IMG/VR virus record: IMGVR_UViG_2778261534_000005
DNA: 7,663 nt
Source: a virus
Lineage: Duplodnaviria > Heunggongvirae > Uroviricota > Caudoviricetes
Strand: one strand, 5' to 3'
The first letter of the stretch is position 1; each line of letters begins with the position of its first letter. Below, piece after piece: positions 338 to 7,663 of the stretch. Under the pieces are notes generated by a model. It made no database searches and was not told the DNA's origin. It was given only the letters and a program-made list of their open reading frames with translations. The position numbers were made by a program, and so were the translations under genes.

Positions 338-411
338 CTGTAAGAGATACCTGAAAAGATACTTAACAGAACTACCAAGAAGAGAGGGAACGATAAGACC
401 AGAGGTAGTGA

Positions 412-424
412 CCTGTTAAACAGG
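412..424. repeat. 13-bp palindrome CCTGTT-A-AACAGG
   Basis: 6-bp arms are exact reverse complements around a single central base, inside the repeat-rich noncoding block. Confidence 0.5.
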
Positions 425-845
425 CTGTTTCAAAGTCTCTTAAGAAATCTGTTAAGTAAGGGCTATGTGACCAATATTACCATTTTGTCAATGCTTTTGT
501 CTTTGACCTAAATCAATAAAATGTATCGTTTGATATGCTTTTAAACAAAATGGCTAAAAAATCTTTTTAGAGGGGCGCTTCGCTTGTGTCACCAATATAT
601 TCTTCCCTGTCTAAGAGGGAAGTTACAGGGACATTTCAAAGCCCTCAATAGACAAACCGAGGAACACGGGAAACCGAGGGAAGAAAAATCTATTGTGATT
701 GCCTTGAACAAGGTCTGTAAAGGTCGTTTAAGGGGTCGGTTAAGAAAGGAGCTTCCCTCTCTGGGGTTATCGCTCTTCTCTCGCTTAGTGGATTGATTAG
801 GGGTTGTGTTATACAAGCCCAACTAAGAAGACCTCTGAAGTTTCC

Positions 846-1035
846 CTGTGAAGAAGCTGAACAGCTATTATATATGGCTAATTACAACTAATTGAAAAAT
901 AAGCATTTTTAGAAGTTACTGTTAAGGTTACAGAGTTGTCTGTGAAGAGACTTGTCAGTTCTCTATATATGGCTAATTACAACTTATTGAAAAATAAGAA
1001 CTTTTAGAAGTTACTGTCAGAGAGGTGAATACTTG
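846..1035. repeat. Imperfect tandem duplication of a ~94-bp unit (846..939 and 940..~1035) with a near-identical 54-bp core
   Basis: Both units start with ctgtgaaga. The cores at 869..922 and 964..1017 (tatatatggctaattacaac-N-attgaaaaataag...ttttagaagttactgt) differ at only about 3 positions; the flanks are more diverged. Confidence 0.8.
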
Positions 1036-1098
1036 ATAGATACAGCTTTCCGGTTCTGTCAAGCTATTTTTTCATAGATAGCACAAAATGCTAAAGAT

Positions 1099-1128
1099 AC
1101 CCCTATACCATCACGTACAGGGGGTTTT
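1099..1128 (-). terminator. Putative hairpin terminator for the leftward small-protein transcript, possibly bidirectional
   Basis: Stem 1100..1108 pairs with 1115..1123 (9 bp; one G-U wobble in the minus-strand RNA, which is an A-C mismatch on plus), loop 1109..1114. It sits 14 nt downstream of the minus-strand stop at 1138..1140 and is followed on the minus strand by a U-rich but interrupted tail; on the plus strand TTTT (1125..1128) follows. Confidence 0.35.
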
Positions 1129-1137
1129 GGAGGGATT

Positions 1138-1326
1138 TTAACGAGGGTCTGTATGGTTGTCTTCACGGCCTCTGTCCTTGAGGTCAAACGACCATTCACG
1201 ACCAAACAACCGAAACACGATAAACACCCTGACGATGAAATAGCGAAGTAGTAGGCCTGCAATCAGCCCAACACCTCCACCAGCCCATACATCAGGTGAC
1301 CCCAGTTCAGGAGGGAGATTTACCAT
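1138..1326 (-). CDS. Small membrane protein, 62 aa, one predicted transmembrane helix; function unknown
   Basis: ORF-track product MVNLPPELGSPDVWAGGGVGLIAGLLLRYFIVRVFIVFRLFG... has a hydrophobic core followed by a charged tail. GAAGG Shine-Dalgarno about 8 nt upstream of the ATG on the minus strand; extended -10 promoter ~110 nt upstream; hairpin after the stop. Local GC is higher than in the flanking noncoding DNA. Confidence 0.4.
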   Translation of the reverse strand: MVNLPPELGSPDVWAGGGVGLIAGLLLRYFIVRVFIVFRLFGREWSFDLKDRGREDNHTDPR

Positions 1327-1440
1327 TCAATGTACCTTCTGTGTGCAATGCAAAAAACATGTGACCATTCTCGATAGTTGATTCGGTTTATCGAATAAAC
1401 CTCATAGCCACGCTTCATATTTTCCCTCTCCCATAAACCC

Positions 1441-3517: not shown

Positions 3518-3594
3518 TGACGTTAATTGTATTATGGACGCTGTTAGGCTTATTTGTTGGCTGCATTATTAACAATGCGGTAAATAAGAATTGA
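3517..3594 (+). CDS. Small hydrophobic peptide, 25 aa (MTLIVLWTLLGLFVGCIINNAVNKN), possible single-pass membrane peptide
   Basis: Absent from the ORF track (too short). The ATG at 3517 overlaps the upstream TAA (TAATG); GAGGG at 3505..3509 with 7-nt spacing. Hydrophobic core followed by a polar basic tail. Confidence 0.4.
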   Translation: MTLIVLWTLLGLFVGCIINNAVNKN

Positions 3595-3618
3595 TGTTAC
3601 CAATCTGTTAAAAAGCTG

Positions 3619-3647
3619 TTGACAAATAACCTTAAGCATGACATAAT
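3619..3647 (+). promoter_or_regulatory. Sigma70-type promoter (TTGACA-17-CATAAT)
   Basis: Perfect -35 TTGACA at 3619..3624, 17-nt spacer, CATAAT at 3642..3647. Confidence 0.5.
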
Positions 3648-3915: not shown

Positions 3916-3960
3916 AAAGCCCTTCACAGATGAGGATGAACCTATGTTTAGGGCTTTTTT
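3916..3960 (+). terminator. Hairpin with a large loop plus T-tract (terminator-like)
   Basis: aaagccct (3916..3923) pairs with agggcttt (3950..3957) around a 26-nt loop; the T run extends to 3960. Confidence 0.35.
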
Positions 3961-4070
3961 CAGCTTTTAAAAAGCATACTTGGCAAACGCCTTTTAAGCC
4001 TCTTCTAAGTTCGAGGATGTCAGGTGTGCTTTTTAAAAACTGAATATTACTTAGAAGAGGAAATGAAATA

Positions 4071-4781
4071 ATGGCAAATGACATTTATATTAGTGGAAGA
4101 AAAATTGATAGCTTCGGTGACTGGTCGCCACAGACTGAACATCCAGCTATCGCTATTCAGCGCAAAGAGCACGATGAAAGAATTGCACTTGAGCAAGAGT
4201 TAAAGATGACACCAAAGGAAATTACCTTTGTGTCTCCTGAGCCTCAAGAGATGCCTGATGTATGCAAAACTGAATCATTACTTGAGCTTGAGCGTGAATA
4301 TTACCCACTACTGAAAGCACAAAGAATTAAACTTGATATTGCTTACGATGCGGTTAAGAACTTCGAAGAAACCTCGAAACCTTCAGAATATGATATTGCT
4401 TACGAGATTAAGTCAAACCCATTTATCTATTATGAAGGAAACTTTAATGATGGTTTTGGTACAGCGATTGAAGACGTTCCTAAAGTTCTTCAAAGTATCC
4501 CTGAAGGGTTCCGGTTAATTGATGTCAGACAAGCATTAAGGGGTTCTGGTCAATTTATCCTGATGAGTGATAAGACAGATGAAGAGATTCTTCAGTTAGC
4601 TGAAGCTAATTTGACTAAGCATTATTCCGGTAAACTGGATAAGTTAAAGCAAAAGCTTAGAAAAGAACTTGATAGCATGAAAGAACTTGTTAGTGAATAT
4701 GAATCACAGAAGAAGATTGCTATGCAGGCTGATATTGAGCAGTTAGTGAAGATTTCAACGAAGTACGCAAAGGTGCTTTAA
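4071..4781 (+). CDS. Hypothetical acidic protein, 236 aa; possible tail assembly chaperone by position (inference)
   Basis: GAGG at 4057..4060 about 10 nt before the ATG. First gene after the long noncoding region and two genes upstream of the tape measure gene. Rich in Asp/Glu with a helical, charged C-terminus. Confidence 0.7.
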   Translation: MANDIYISGRKIDSFGDWSPQTEHPAIAIQRKEHDERIALEQELKMTPKEITFVSPEPQEMPDVCKTESLLELEREYYPLLKAQRIKLDIAYDAVKNFEETSKPSEYDIAYEIKSNPFIYYEGNFNDGFGTAIEDVPKVLQSIPEGFRLIDVRQALRGSGQFILMSDKTDEEILQLAEANLTKHYSGKLDKLKQKLRKELDSMKELVSEYESQKKIAMQADIEQLVKISTKYAKVL

Positions 4782-4804
4782 CTACGAATTAAAAAGGGGT
4801 GTGA

Positions 4805-5008
4805 ATGATTGATTTAACAGAACGCTATGAACTTATCAAAGCAATTAGCGAACGATTGAAAGAACAACCCAACAAACCAAAACGAATCAAATCATCCACC
4901 TCTAAGCAAAAGAATAGAATCAGAAGAATCGCTAAGTGGTGTCTTGATAAATTACCAAGTGATTGTCAGATTGTCGGTGAAGATGGCAATTATTATCTGA
5001 TTAAGTAA
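4805..5008 (+). CDS. Hypothetical small basic protein, 67 aa
   Basis: AAGGGG ribosome-binding site just upstream of the ATG at 4805. Its frame is closed by TGA at 4802..4804, so it is not a frameshift extension of the upstream gene. Confidence 0.55.
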   Translation: MIDLTERYELIKAISERLKEQPNKPKRIKSSTSKQKNRIRRIAKWCLDKLPSDCQIVGEDGNYYLIK

Positions 5009-5099: not shown

Positions 5100-7277
5100 A
5101 TGAGCAAATTCACAGTTGATAGTTTTATCGTTGAGCTAGGCTTCAGCGAGAACGTTATTAAGGGCTTGCAAAGAGTTGAAAAGGCAGCTTTGCAGTCAGC
5201 ACAAAGAATTGAAAAGAACCTAAATAAAGGTTTCAGGATTAATACAAAGCAGCTTGATAGTAATTTAACGACTTCTTTAGGGCAACTTGAAAGGAAGTTT
5301 AATAAGACCTTTGACAAGATTGAACAGAGAGCAAGAAACACAAAAGTTTTCCGTTTCACAAGTCAGGTTAATGACGCTATTAATCCTCCAAAACAACCAA
5401 GACAGCCACGAATTAGCGGAAACAGAGCAATCACAGCAGCTTATTCAGCGAATATGAGCAAGCTAAAAGGCTTTGACCCTATTTTGCAGAAATACATCAA
5501 ATCTCAGTTTTACGGGCTATCTGCTAAAGCTGGGTCAATGGATAATTCAAAATTCAATGAGAAGCTGGCTCAGTTAAACACTTCAGTCAGAGAAGCAATT
5601 GCTAAAGCCAGAGGTCATACATCCACCAGCATTAACAATACAAGCGACGCATTTAATAATCTTGCAAGCAATGCGATTAAATTATCTGGTGCATTTTACT
5701 CTGTGATGGGTGCTCTTAACGCTTACAAGGCCATTATGAATGCAGGTCTTAAACGAGATTCCGCACAGAGAGCCGCTAAGTTTGTACTTGGTGATAAAGC
5801 ATCTGAAGCTGAAACATTTATCAGGGGACTGGCTGACAAGACAGGTCTTAATATCTCTGAAGGGCTATCAAGCTACGCTAAGTTTGCAGCAGGTGCTCAG
5901 GGTTCTATGTCACAGGAACAGACACAGGAGCTATTTGGTAATGCAACGGCTATGAGTCGCTTAATGGGGCTTTCTAACGACGAGCTAAACGGCATTCTGA
6001 AAGCATTTGAGCAGATGGCGAGCAAGGGCAAGATTCAAGCTGAAGAGCTTCGTGGGCAGTTAGGTGACCGTATGGCTGGTGCATTTAAGCTATTCGCTGA
6101 AGCATTGGGTATGACTGCTACAGAGCTTGATAAAGCGATGAAAGACGGGAAGATTTTAAGTAGTGATACTCTCCCTAAAGTCGCTAAACAGATGGGCTTG
6201 ATGATTGATAAAGCGGGTGGTTGGGCTGAAGTCGCTAAGAGCACTCAGACAGCTTTAGGTAAGTTAGCAAACAACTGGGATGACACGATGGTGAAAATCT
6301 TCTCAGGTTCACAGGATGAGCTAAATGGCTTCTTATCCAGCCTGAGTAACCTGCTTAGTGAAATGGGTATGAGTTCTTCTATCGCTGGTGATGCTATCGG
6401 TGGACTTATCGACATGCTTAAAGCTGGTGTAGATGATATCCGTATCTTTAACAATCACATTGAAGGCTGGATTTTACAGACTAAGAAGTTCTATTACAGC
6501 CTTGATGACACTAAACGAAAACTACTTGATGAAGTCGGTGATGGTTTTATCAATTTTGTCAAAGGTCTTGCTATAGCGTTATCTGCAAAGACGCTATTCA
6601 GTGCTACTACAGGGGTTATGAACCTGACAAGAGCAATCACAACGTTAGGTACAAGAGCTAATCAGGTGGCTGGTCAGGTAGCTACTGGTAAAGGTGGTGG
6701 AAAACTGAAAGGTGTAGCTGGTGGTGTAGGTAGTGCTCTTGCAATTGGTTATGCTGATGACGGTTATGAAACAGCGTTAGCATTAGCTTCAATGATTCCA
6801 CAAATCAGAGGTGTCACTCTTGGTTTATATGCATTGAAGAAAGCACTGGATTTTATGAATCAGGAAGTAGTCAAAAACGCTAATATGCATCCATCTGGGG
6901 TAGGTGTGGGTAGTGACTTTAATCCTGTGTATTCTGGTGACCCTAATAAACCGAATGTGATTAACGAAGGATGGAGTAGAATTTTTAGTTCAATGGGTGA
7001 ATTGTTTAACAATGCCACAATGAATATTGCAAGATTCAATCATCCAGAATTGATTACCATGAAACAAGATGCATCATTAACGAGCACTGACATCCAAAAT
7101 CTAAGAGATGAAATTAGTGCTTTGAGTAAACGTATTCAGGAGCCAGTGAAAGTTTCACTTGGTGGTGAAGTTGCCATTAAACCAGATGAAACCAGCTTTA
7201 TGACCTTTAGCAGTAATATCTACGACCAATATGCAGAAGCTACGTTATTAAGTTCATCATTCCCAGAAGATGATTGA
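5100..7277 (+). CDS. Phage tail tape measure protein, 725 aa
   Basis: AAGAGGTGA ribosome-binding site 8 nt upstream. Residues ~291..366 (nt ~5970..6197; LSNDELNGILKAFEQMASKGKIQAEELRGQLGDRMAGAFKLFAEALGMTATELDKAMKDGKILSSDTLPKVAKQMG) match the conserved tape measure domain pattern. Long Ala/Gly/Leu-rich helical-looking protein with a Gly-rich segment at residues ~526..549. Confidence 0.85.
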   Translation: MSKFTVDSFIVELGFSENVIKGLQRVEKAALQSAQRIEKNLNKGFRINTKQLDSNLTTSLGQLERKFNKTFDKIEQRARNTKVFRFTSQVNDAINPPKQPRQPRISGNRAITAAYSANMSKLKGFDPILQKYIKSQFYGLSAKAGSMDNSKFNEKLAQLNTSVREAIAKARGHTSTSINNTSDAFNNLASNAIKLSGAFYSVMGALNAYKAIMNAGLKRDSAQRAAKFVLGDKASEAETFIRGLADKTGLNISEGLSSYAKFAAGAQGSMSQEQTQELFGNATAMSRLMGLSNDELNGILKAFEQMASKGKIQAEELRGQLGDRMAGAFKLFAEALGMTATELDKAMKDGKILSSDTLPKVAKQMGLMIDKAGGWAEVAKSTQTALGKLANNWDDTMVKIFSGSQDELNGFLSSLSNLLSEMGMSSSIAGDAIGGLIDMLKAGVDDIRIFNNHIEGWILQTKKFYYSLDDTKRKLLDEVGDGFINFVKGLAIALSAKTLFSATTGVMNLTRAITTLGTRANQVAGQVATGKGGGKLKGVAGGVGSALAIGYADDGYETALALASMIPQIRGVTLGLYALKKALDFMNQEVVKNANMHPSGVGVGSDFNPVYSGDPNKPNVINEGWSRIFSSMGELFNNATMNIARFNHPELITMKQDASLTSTDIQNLRDEISALSKRIQEPVKVSLGGEVAIKPDETSFMTFSSNIYDQYAEATLLSSSFPEDD

Positions 7278-7373: not shown

Positions 7374-7663
<290 letters not shown>

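Follow-up and report, generated by a model that had tools for sequence, protein, structure and literature searches.

A 95-bp tandem repeat under constraint in an Escherichia coli chromosomal island: a candidate cis-acting DNA site

The P1 parS site, lambda cosB and the attP arms are DNA sites of about 90 bp in which a central IHF bend lies between blocks recognised by specific proteins. The cis replication region of satellite phage P4, crr, contains two direct repeats of about 120 bp with iterons, the octamer of which is bound by the P4 alpha protein. The RIP and BIME elements of Escherichia coli, which are located where convergent operons end, have an IHF site flanked by REP palindromes. The subject of this study is a pair of 95-bp direct repeats at positions 846-1035 of the IMG/VR virus record IMGVR_UViG_2778261534_000005 (Caudoviricetes), a DNA of 7,663 nucleotides that we refer to in its entirety as the window. 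Mobile elements are known to carry tandem modules that act in cis within their control regions; the unit itself matches no described RNA family. Our sequence comparisons indicate that the two units are the best-preserved non-coding sequence of the chromosomal island to which the window belongs and that the repeat is old, and we tentatively read the unit as a DNA site for the assembly of a protein complex.

The unit resembles parS, cosB and the attP arms in its size of about 90 bp, in the central IHF-like site predicted here and in the blocks that flank this site, but no ParB, terminase or Int partner was found for it and it shares no sequence similarity with them. With P4 crr it has in common two long direct repeats in non-coding DNA, some distance from other cis sites, as in that phage-dependent mobile element; here, however, the units abut instead of being spaced apart, and neither an initiator gene nor a clear internal iteron was found. 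Palindromes and an IHF-like site in intergenic DNA between convergent transcription units recall RIP and BIME, from which the unit differs in its unrelated sequence, in being specific to the island and in not being dispersed round the chromosome. Tandem small RNA genes and small RNAs derived from 3' untranslated regions, such as agrA/agrB next to dinQ, also show ~90-nt tandem units beside a small membrane-protein gene with a shared 3' terminator, but the units described here have no recognisable plus-strand promoters of their own, carry a terminator at the last unit only and are complementary to the neighbouring mRNA no more than expected by chance. A last comparison is with the origins of PLE satellites (background in PMC9638900 and PMC9410903) and of PICI, which share with the present locus an island with a large serine recombinase and a relationship to a virulent myovirus, and a long non-coding region with repeats. 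Those origins are built of iterons of ~20-30 bp, as against a unit of 95 bp in just one to three copies here, and no RepA-type gene was found.

A search of the window for direct repeats returned one outstanding family, consisting of cores of 54 nt at 869-922 and 964-1017 that are identical at 51/54 positions (94%) and start 95 nt apart; the three differences (first/second copy) are A/T at 890, C/A at 904 and T/C at 906. The runner-up was a repeat of just 31 nt at 74%, which places the 95-bp repeat far beyond chance. Tandem Repeats Finder reported 869-1057 with a period of 95, 2.0 copies, 78% matches and a score of 225. A first-pass annotation of this DNA, made from the letters alone, had described a tandem duplication with a period of ~94 bp, a near-identical 54-bp core differing at about three positions, more diverged flanks, and a TA-rich segment and a TTGAAA hexamer in each core. 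The repeat searches agree with this description in all but the period, which is 95: the flanks are more diverged (78% matches over the full period against 51/54 in the core), the TA-rich segments lie at 869-875 and 964-970 and the hexamers at 892-897 and 987-992. The concern that the similarity might be limited to low-complexity AT-rich DNA proved unfounded, for the cores are AT-rich yet not of low complexity, the similarity spans the non-repetitive blocks ATTACAACT, TTGAAAAATAAG, TTTTAGAA and TTACTGT, and matching units were recovered from more than 60 independent loci. We call the first copy unit F (846..940) and the last copy unit L (941..1035), neither of which is assigned a strand. A profile built from 113 units found exactly these two copies in the window (nhmmer E 4e-24 for F and 2.5e-28 for L) and no additional diverged copies. 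A weak, degenerate partial third copy can be traced at 1036-1057, where the hairpin of a terminator that we call T1 sits at the position of the 5' hairpin of the unit.

The sequence collection used for comparison comprised three IMG/VR contigs, two E. albertii contigs, eleven annotated E. coli loci and 64 metagenome hits. Among the 66 distinct loci obtained, 20 have one unit, 45 have two and 1 has three, so that the copy-number variation which the first-pass annotation had proposed to look for among relatives is indeed present. The single-copy units are chimeras of an F-type 5' part and an L-type 3' part, in several different haplotypes, and on a tree of the flanking DNA the loci with one copy are interspersed with those that have two, which together point to repeated loss or gain of a copy by unequal exchange within the core. 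Related genomes with a single copy and no phenotype had been named beforehand as evidence that would speak against a role for the repeat. As to the first half of this, single-copy relatives are common (20/66) and include one island that matches nearly the whole window. The duplication itself is dispensable; the unit is not.

Conservation was measured as the mean pairwise identity across 16 colinear islands. The values were 0.89 for unit F, 0.94 for unit L, 0.93 for T1 and 0.94 for 1078-1125, which holds a second terminator, T2, so that the units and the two convergent terminators together (845-1125) are 0.89-0.94 identical. The non-coding DNA to the left reached 0.62-0.75, the gene for a 62-residue protein 0.87 and the gene for a 184-residue protein 0.60-0.71. 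The least conserved part was 701-844 (0.62); identity climbs sharply about 230 nt ahead of T1 and stays high past T1 to T2. In the contig L001/L090 unit L is 96% identical to that of the window, and the 236-residue protein of the island just 61%. The F and L cores are as similar within an island (0.894) as between islands (0.892; permutation p 0.34), from which it follows that the duplication predates the diversification of the islands, and this comparison of paralogs with orthologs (F-F 0.904, L-L 0.937) gave no sign of ongoing conversion between the copies. Islands of E. coli and E. albertii moreover have both copies even though their genes share just 60-70% nucleotide identity. A recent duplication and selective constraint had both been offered as explanations of the near-identical cores; the first is contradicted by these figures, and the second agrees with them, which points to strong purifying selection as the cause of the similarity.

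Reading the alignment of the 113 units on the plus strand from 5' to 3', the order of elements is CTGTGAAG (invariant), a 15-nt palindrome segment, TATAT(A)TGG, either CTA or GTG, ATTACAACT, NN, TTGAAAAATAAG, NNN, TTTTAGAA, one to three variable bases and ACTGT; in unit F the linker TAAGGTTACAGAGTTGT closes the unit. All of the variation is held in the few short gaps between these long invariant blocks, and the variable positions have few alleles, which are common to F, L and single copies. The 15-nt segment varies by island but retains a small palindrome or hairpin, which is AGCTG-AA-CAGCT in unit F (855..866), ACTG-GA-CAGT or GCTG-GA-CAGC at the corresponding place in other islands, and GAGAC-TTGTCA-GT(T)CTC in unit L (947..963). 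Among islands the palindrome shows a compensatory double change from A-T to G-C, and compensatory change in the unit is limited to this short hairpin. The 5' hairpins are weak (-1 to -6 kcal/mol) and slightly more stable on the plus strand (18/26 variants; mean -3.1 vs -2.2 kcal/mol). At the sole three-copy locus (L035, minus strand, 4760-4836) the middle unit carries its whole hairpin in inverted form: the 17-nt sequence GAGAACTGACAAGTCTC is exactly the reverse complement of the common GAGACTTGTCAGTTCTC, which suggests an inversion of a quasi-palindrome by template switching. A 26-bp indel just upstream of unit F at 800-825, TTAGGGGTTGTGTTATACAAGCCCAAC, is itself a hairpin and is present in 5/15 aligned sequences, including the window.

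The centre of each unit holds an IHF-like site on the minus strand, at 885..897 in unit F (TTTCAATTAGTTG, matching 8/9 specified positions of WATCAANNNNTTR) and at 980..992 in unit L (TTTCAATAAGTTG). In 112/113 units the minus strand fits a loosened consensus, WWTCAANNNNTTR. The match, TTTCAA-NNNN-TTG, has a T-rich tract 5' of the site, and the two hypervariable bases fall inside the N4 of the consensus. The core gives no sign of RNA structure: its folding z-scores against shuffled sequence range from +1.67 to -0.73, cores and whole units alike lacked significant structure on both strands, and copy F (z +1.4 to +1.7) folds worse than shuffled sequence. The one neat hairpin, a GNRA-looped CUUAUU-GAAA-AAUAAG, was rejected because its left arm changes (TA/CA/CG/AA) in most copies without compensation. 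The structured RNA element that the first-pass annotation had considered for the core is thus not borne out. Rfam gave no match in the whole window at E <= 1, and a tRNA scan of the window gave none. Inspection by eye found that no sigma-54, CRP or LexA site, DnaA box or res/hix/gix-type recombinase site fits the unit.

The window is, by its sequence matches, part of a chromosomal island of ~11 kb and not a free phage. It matches 545/5,426 complete E. coli genomes (~10%), always in the chromosome and at up to 4 places per genome. A search of 185,579 species representatives for the core pattern found E. albertii as the sole further carrier. The NZ_CM136172 copy of the element is an insertion of ~11 kb between ymdF and wrbA (locus L004, 10300-21900); at locus L002 the element adjoins yciI. 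Its order in NZ_CM136172 begins with a small serine recombinase near one end, followed by ~1.8 kb without annotated genes, which holds the repeat, orphan open reading frames (ORFs) with an HNH endonuclease, and the 236-residue protein; a 725-residue tape measure protein, a Dit-like 'baseplate' protein and, at the other end, a large serine recombinase of 547 residues complete it. Positions 1-845 of the window hold no conserved ORF. The proposal to compare the repeat among related phage genomes consequently needs recasting, as the locus lies in a chromosomal island and no phage in our collection of 50,697 records holds the unit. In the literature searched, no paper describes the island or the repeat sequence.

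The phage relationship of the island is confined to other parts of it. Among the 50,697 phage records the only matches were to 7458-7663 (96-97% identity, in more than 200 Felixounavirus genomes) and to pieces of the tape-measure gene, and blastn of 500-1500 against these records gave no match. The tape measure protein (gene 5100-7277) is 34% identical over residues 1-497 to that of Felixounavirus garuso, and the start of the Dit-like protein (~70 residues; gene 7424-7663) is 85% identical in protein and 97% in DNA to the phage; such a mosaic of a 34% tape measure and 96-97% DNA identity suggests recent exchange with virulent Felixounavirus phages. The non-coding DNA is also related in two patches. 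One lies at 363..435 (plus strand) and matches 49666-49739 of the garuso record (73% over 75 nt, E 2e-5). The other, just upstream of the window in the islands, is a 157-bp module matching garuso 49,952-50,107 (L010 794-949; E 1e-9 to 2e-12, depending on the search space), in which three AT-rich boxes keep the same spacing as in garuso while the DNA between them differs. The two patches stand in the opposite order in the island. In garuso they belong to a gene-free region of 1.65 kb (record 48,953-50,602; L083 8953-10602) at the convergence of two gene blocks, packed with 11-bp-phased YTGTTAAG, CTGTAAAG and CTTAAAAG words in both orientations and with AT-rich boxes. The region is conserved in 257 phage records, where it carries no annotation; the paper on the Felix O1 genome (PMC3185647) does not discuss it, and the literature searched assigns the Felix O1 non-coding region no function as origin, packaging site or termini.

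Within the 1.1 kb to the left of T1 several plus-strand words, chosen after viewing the sequence, are over-represented relative to shuffles. CTGTNAAG occurs 7 times against 0.14 expected (at 270, 449, 715, 846, 919, 940 and 1056), AGTTAC 6 times against 0.54 (at 44, 218, 319, 621, 914 and 1009, and nowhere in the other 6.5 kb on either strand) and GTTAAG 6 times against 0.65. Tandem 12-bp GGTCGGTTAAGG repeats lie at 722..744 on the plus strand, and GTTAAGAAGG 12-mers are found at the right end of the phage non-coding region. The oriented words and the two patches homologous to the iteron-rich, AT-rich Felixounavirus region suggest that the surroundings of the units work as DNA.

We tentatively read the 95-bp unit as a DNA module that acts in cis as the assembly site of a bent nucleoprotein complex. 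The short palindrome would be followed by the TA tract and by the central IHF-like bend site, and the invariant blocks of 8-12 bp on either side of the bend site would be contacted by a candidate protein from the island or from a helper phage. Lying in the non-coding control region of an ~11-kb island presumably mobilised by its large serine recombinase, the module could mark the island DNA for a transaction of the excised element (its replication, packaging or partition, for example), for which one unit would suffice and two would be the usual state. We favour this reading on account of the block-like conservation above that of the genes, the lack of an RNA or coding signal in the core, the symmetric palindrome, the free copy number and the phage-cis-like surroundings. 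The pattern of variation amounts to more conservation than a promoter alone needs, and copy numbers of one to three with chimeric single copies are typical of tandem protein-binding sites. The protein-binding site that the first-pass annotation had listed among its options for the core is its most economical reading.

Several results weigh against this proposal. No binding protein was identified, the ORFs of the island being orphans without Pfam, PADLOC, PDB or fold match, and there is no recognisable replication, partition or terminase gene beside the units. With the unit profile, nhmmer found no counterpart in Felixounavirus garuso (best E 0.27), and recognition by a phage protein is therefore not demonstrable by homology. 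The IHF match is a lead and not a test, since it agrees at 8/9 positions and was found after several consensus sequences had been tried. Finally, the conserved plus-strand terminator directly 3' of the units and the greater stability of the 5' hairpins on the plus strand would fit a role as RNA equally well. Two more specific versions of a DNA site are not borne out by the sequence. An iteron-type replication origin would have several direct repeats of about 17-22 bp beside an AT-rich unwinding element and an initiator gene, whereas the unit measures 95 bp in one to three copies, with no further copies in the window and no initiator recognised; the AT-rich phage-like boxes lie ~1.2 kb from the units, outside the window. 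For a mimic of a packaging or replication site of a helper phage, the unit lacks similarity in garuso or in the phage records, although other non-coding DNA of the island does match.

It is possible, but less probable, that the units act as RNA. Plus-strand transcripts from the upstream cargo or recombinase side would then cross the units and stop at T1, and the last ~230 nt would be a small RNA derived or processed from a 3' untranslated region, or a sponge, to which each unit supplies a small 5' hairpin and an unstructured A/U-rich stretch. Within this stretch GAAAAAUAAGAAC holds four consecutive A-R-N triplets, the type of motif bound by Hfq. T1 (1032..1072, plus strand) is an intrinsic-terminator-like hairpin, CTTGATAGA / TCTGTCAAG, then CTATTTTTT, of -13 kcal/mol (z -3.56), with a 9-bp stem, then CUAUUUUUU, and a U6 tail. 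Across 49 parsed loci its stem is invariant, its loop variable and its T6-7 tract kept, and a U.G pair is tolerated on the plus strand only, as it would be an A.C mismatch on the other strand; T1 qualifies as a predicted conserved plus-strand intrinsic terminator. Because T1 is directional and conservation rises sharply just before it, with a jump ~230 nt ahead as in small RNAs derived from 3' untranslated regions, the idea of an RNA stays alive. The poor folding of the core of copy F would fit a single-stranded seed or a protein-binding RNA, and the 5' hairpins show covariation together with somewhat greater stability on the plus strand.

One point against an RNA is the lack of a plus-strand promoter in or just upstream of the units, both in the consensus scan, which returned zero plus-strand sigma-70 sites in 1-1400, and in manual checks. 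The plus-strand promoter implied by the description of a TATA-rich segment together with TTGAAA does not hold, as the TA tract lies 5' of TTGAAA and the GTTACT/ATTACT 17 nt downstream has T instead of the essential A at position 2 of the hexamer. The DNA immediately upstream (701-844) is the least conserved, no Rfam family matches, the 5' hairpins are weak and the high conservation runs past T1 to T2. Pairing of the units with the mRNA of the neighbouring 33- and 62-residue ORFs was no better than with shuffled controls, and a type I toxin-antitoxin antisense RNA to this operon was rejected on these duplex energies. An antisense RNA to the conserved ribosome-binding regions of Felixounavirus early genes, suggested by weak nhmmer hits, was also set aside: duplex energies with 117 motif-predicted start regions of the phage equalled those of shuffled controls, and pairing with the AUG would fall to the variable bases of the unit.

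Tandem promoters and a passenger role are both less likely than a DNA site or an RNA. We consider it improbable that each unit is a minus-strand sigma-70 promoter, with the IHF-like site over the start region as modulator and the palindrome as an operator ~20-40 nt downstream, so that transcription from the tandem pair would run leftwards into the cargo region, in antisense to any plus-strand transcript coming in. The consensus scan did report both sites, which are weak promoter-like pairs on the minus strand: in unit F (896..925) a -35 TTAACA (925..920) and in unit L (991..1020) a -35 CTGACA (1020..1015), each separated by an 18-nt spacer from a -10 TATTTT (901..896 and 996..991, respectively). 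The hexamers (-35 CTGACA/TTAACA/CTAACA) and the 18-nt spacing are kept in 112/113 units, four units have TATATT for TATTTT, which is nearer the consensus, the variable triplet falls in the spacer, and 8/10 promoter-like sites in 1-1700 are on the minus strand. However, the score of 9/12 equals the threshold of the scan, at which shuffled sequence yields 3.8 +/- 1.9 such sites per 1.7 kb, and a spacer of 18 nt is suboptimal. The invariance of the spacer TTCTAAAA and of the +3 to +12 region AGTTGTAAT is not required of a promoter, conservation is not specific to the hexamers, and nothing conserved (ORF, terminator, RNA or sequence) lies downstream on the minus strand, where 701-844 is the least conserved part.

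Very improbable, in our judgement, is that the units are functionless passengers, kept because of their place between the terminators and a hotspot of cargo exchange, serving only to anchor homologous recombination, and duplicated by neutral slippage. Cargo genes are swapped at 592/623 and in the recombinase slot with conserved DNA on either side, the copy number changes freely, and in one divergent island (L030) the second unit is decayed and the terminators are altered. Neutral DNA, however, would not exceed adjacent coding genes in conservation nor vary at just a handful of positions, and the paralogs are as similar as the orthologs, with no trace of conversion. Nor does proximity to the hotspot account for the conservation, because 701-844, which lies between the hotspot and the units, is poorly conserved. 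We regard as effectively refuted the notion that each core encodes a 12-residue peptide, MANYNLLKNKNF on the plus strand or MLIFQLVVISHI on the minus strand in one allele, since an ATG or TTG with 12 codons does occur in many copies but a Shine-Dalgarno sequence is lacking, several units (copy F of the window and the single-copy loci L063 and L066 among them) have a TAA or TGA stop as codon 6, nearly all changes are non-synonymous and the minus-strand ATG exists in one allele only.

Returning to the DNA site, the homologies of the tape measure, the Dit-like protein and the non-coding patches suggest that the island borrowed tail genes and non-coding cis-DNA from Felix O1-type phages, as would be expected of a satellite or interference element. 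We think it unlikely, though worth stating, that the window belongs to a family whose members are satellites or parasites of virulent Felix O1-type phages in Escherichia. The units would then serve as a cis signal proper to this family, used in packaging, replication or partition, with IHF and an orphan protein of the island as its readers. Should the units prove to be a cis signal, they would offer a handle on how an island found in about one tenth of sequenced E. coli interacts with Felix O1-type phages, which are widely used in typing, biocontrol and therapy. An island with a phage-like tape measure, a Dit-like baseplate protein and copied control DNA could disturb tail assembly or could hitch a ride in phage particles, and either effect would bear on phage efficacy and gene transfer. 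Being the most conserved non-coding sequence of the island, the units are a convenient marker for it and a natural first target for deletion. If they are only a terminator-proximal passenger, the finding is an ordinary one.

The annotation of the ORFs of the island with PHROGs, Pfam, NCBIfam, PADLOC, PDB, tblastn against phages, 1.8 billion cluster representatives, AlphaFold and Foldseek named only the tape measure protein, the HNH endonuclease, the Dit-like protein and the recombinases. The 236-residue protein (4071-4781) is labelled 'transposase' in RefSeq, a label that no Pfam, NCBIfam, PHROG, PADLOC or PDB match backs; its AlphaFold model consists mostly of long helices at low confidence (predicted local distance difference test, pLDDT, 60.6). 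Just upstream of its gene, 3959-4044 holds a 27-nt inverted repeat (85% complementary, arms 32 nt apart), which could be an operator or a terminator between two plus-strand operons. At the cargo slot 592/623 some islands (L010, L013) carry a DNA N-6-adenine methyltransferase gene that is absent from the window, and a 70-residue ORF of the window (584-796) begins where the methyltransferase gene begins in those islands. The genes found in the slot left of the window are unrelated to one another and may point either way; they encode different small serine recombinases or an AP2-domain protein and lie between conserved flanks (L009 786-1328, L010 23-598, L016 925-1473, L014 1291-1815). An inversion of the small recombinase gene was rejected for this slot, as the opposite orientations reflect unrelated genes swapped into one place by cassette exchange. 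In the divergent island L030 (4380-4860, minus strand) unit F is intact, and unit L, T1 (which has no U tract) and T2 (where there is another hairpin) are decayed or replaced.

To the right of the units, T1 faces T2 (1100..1123, minus strand; -15.9 kcal/mol, z -3.2), the terminator of a small-gene operon, and both units lie directly 5' of T1. The operon consists of a 33-residue ORF (1417..1320, minus strand) and the 62-residue protein with one membrane helix (1326..1138, minus strand), which overlap at ATGGTAA and are left out of several RefSeq annotations. Their layout resembles that of a small toxin, for which an antisense partner was not found. Divergent promoters are predicted from the sequence at 1441-1518, the minus-strand one driving the 33- and 62-residue ORFs up to T2, and beside them lies an 11-bp repeat, ATAAATTGTTA, in 2.5 copies. 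Upstream of another TTGACA, at 3619, the segment ATGTTA-N6-TGTTAAAAA-N5-TTGACA appears again (3594-3624); it may represent a shared activator site or UP element.

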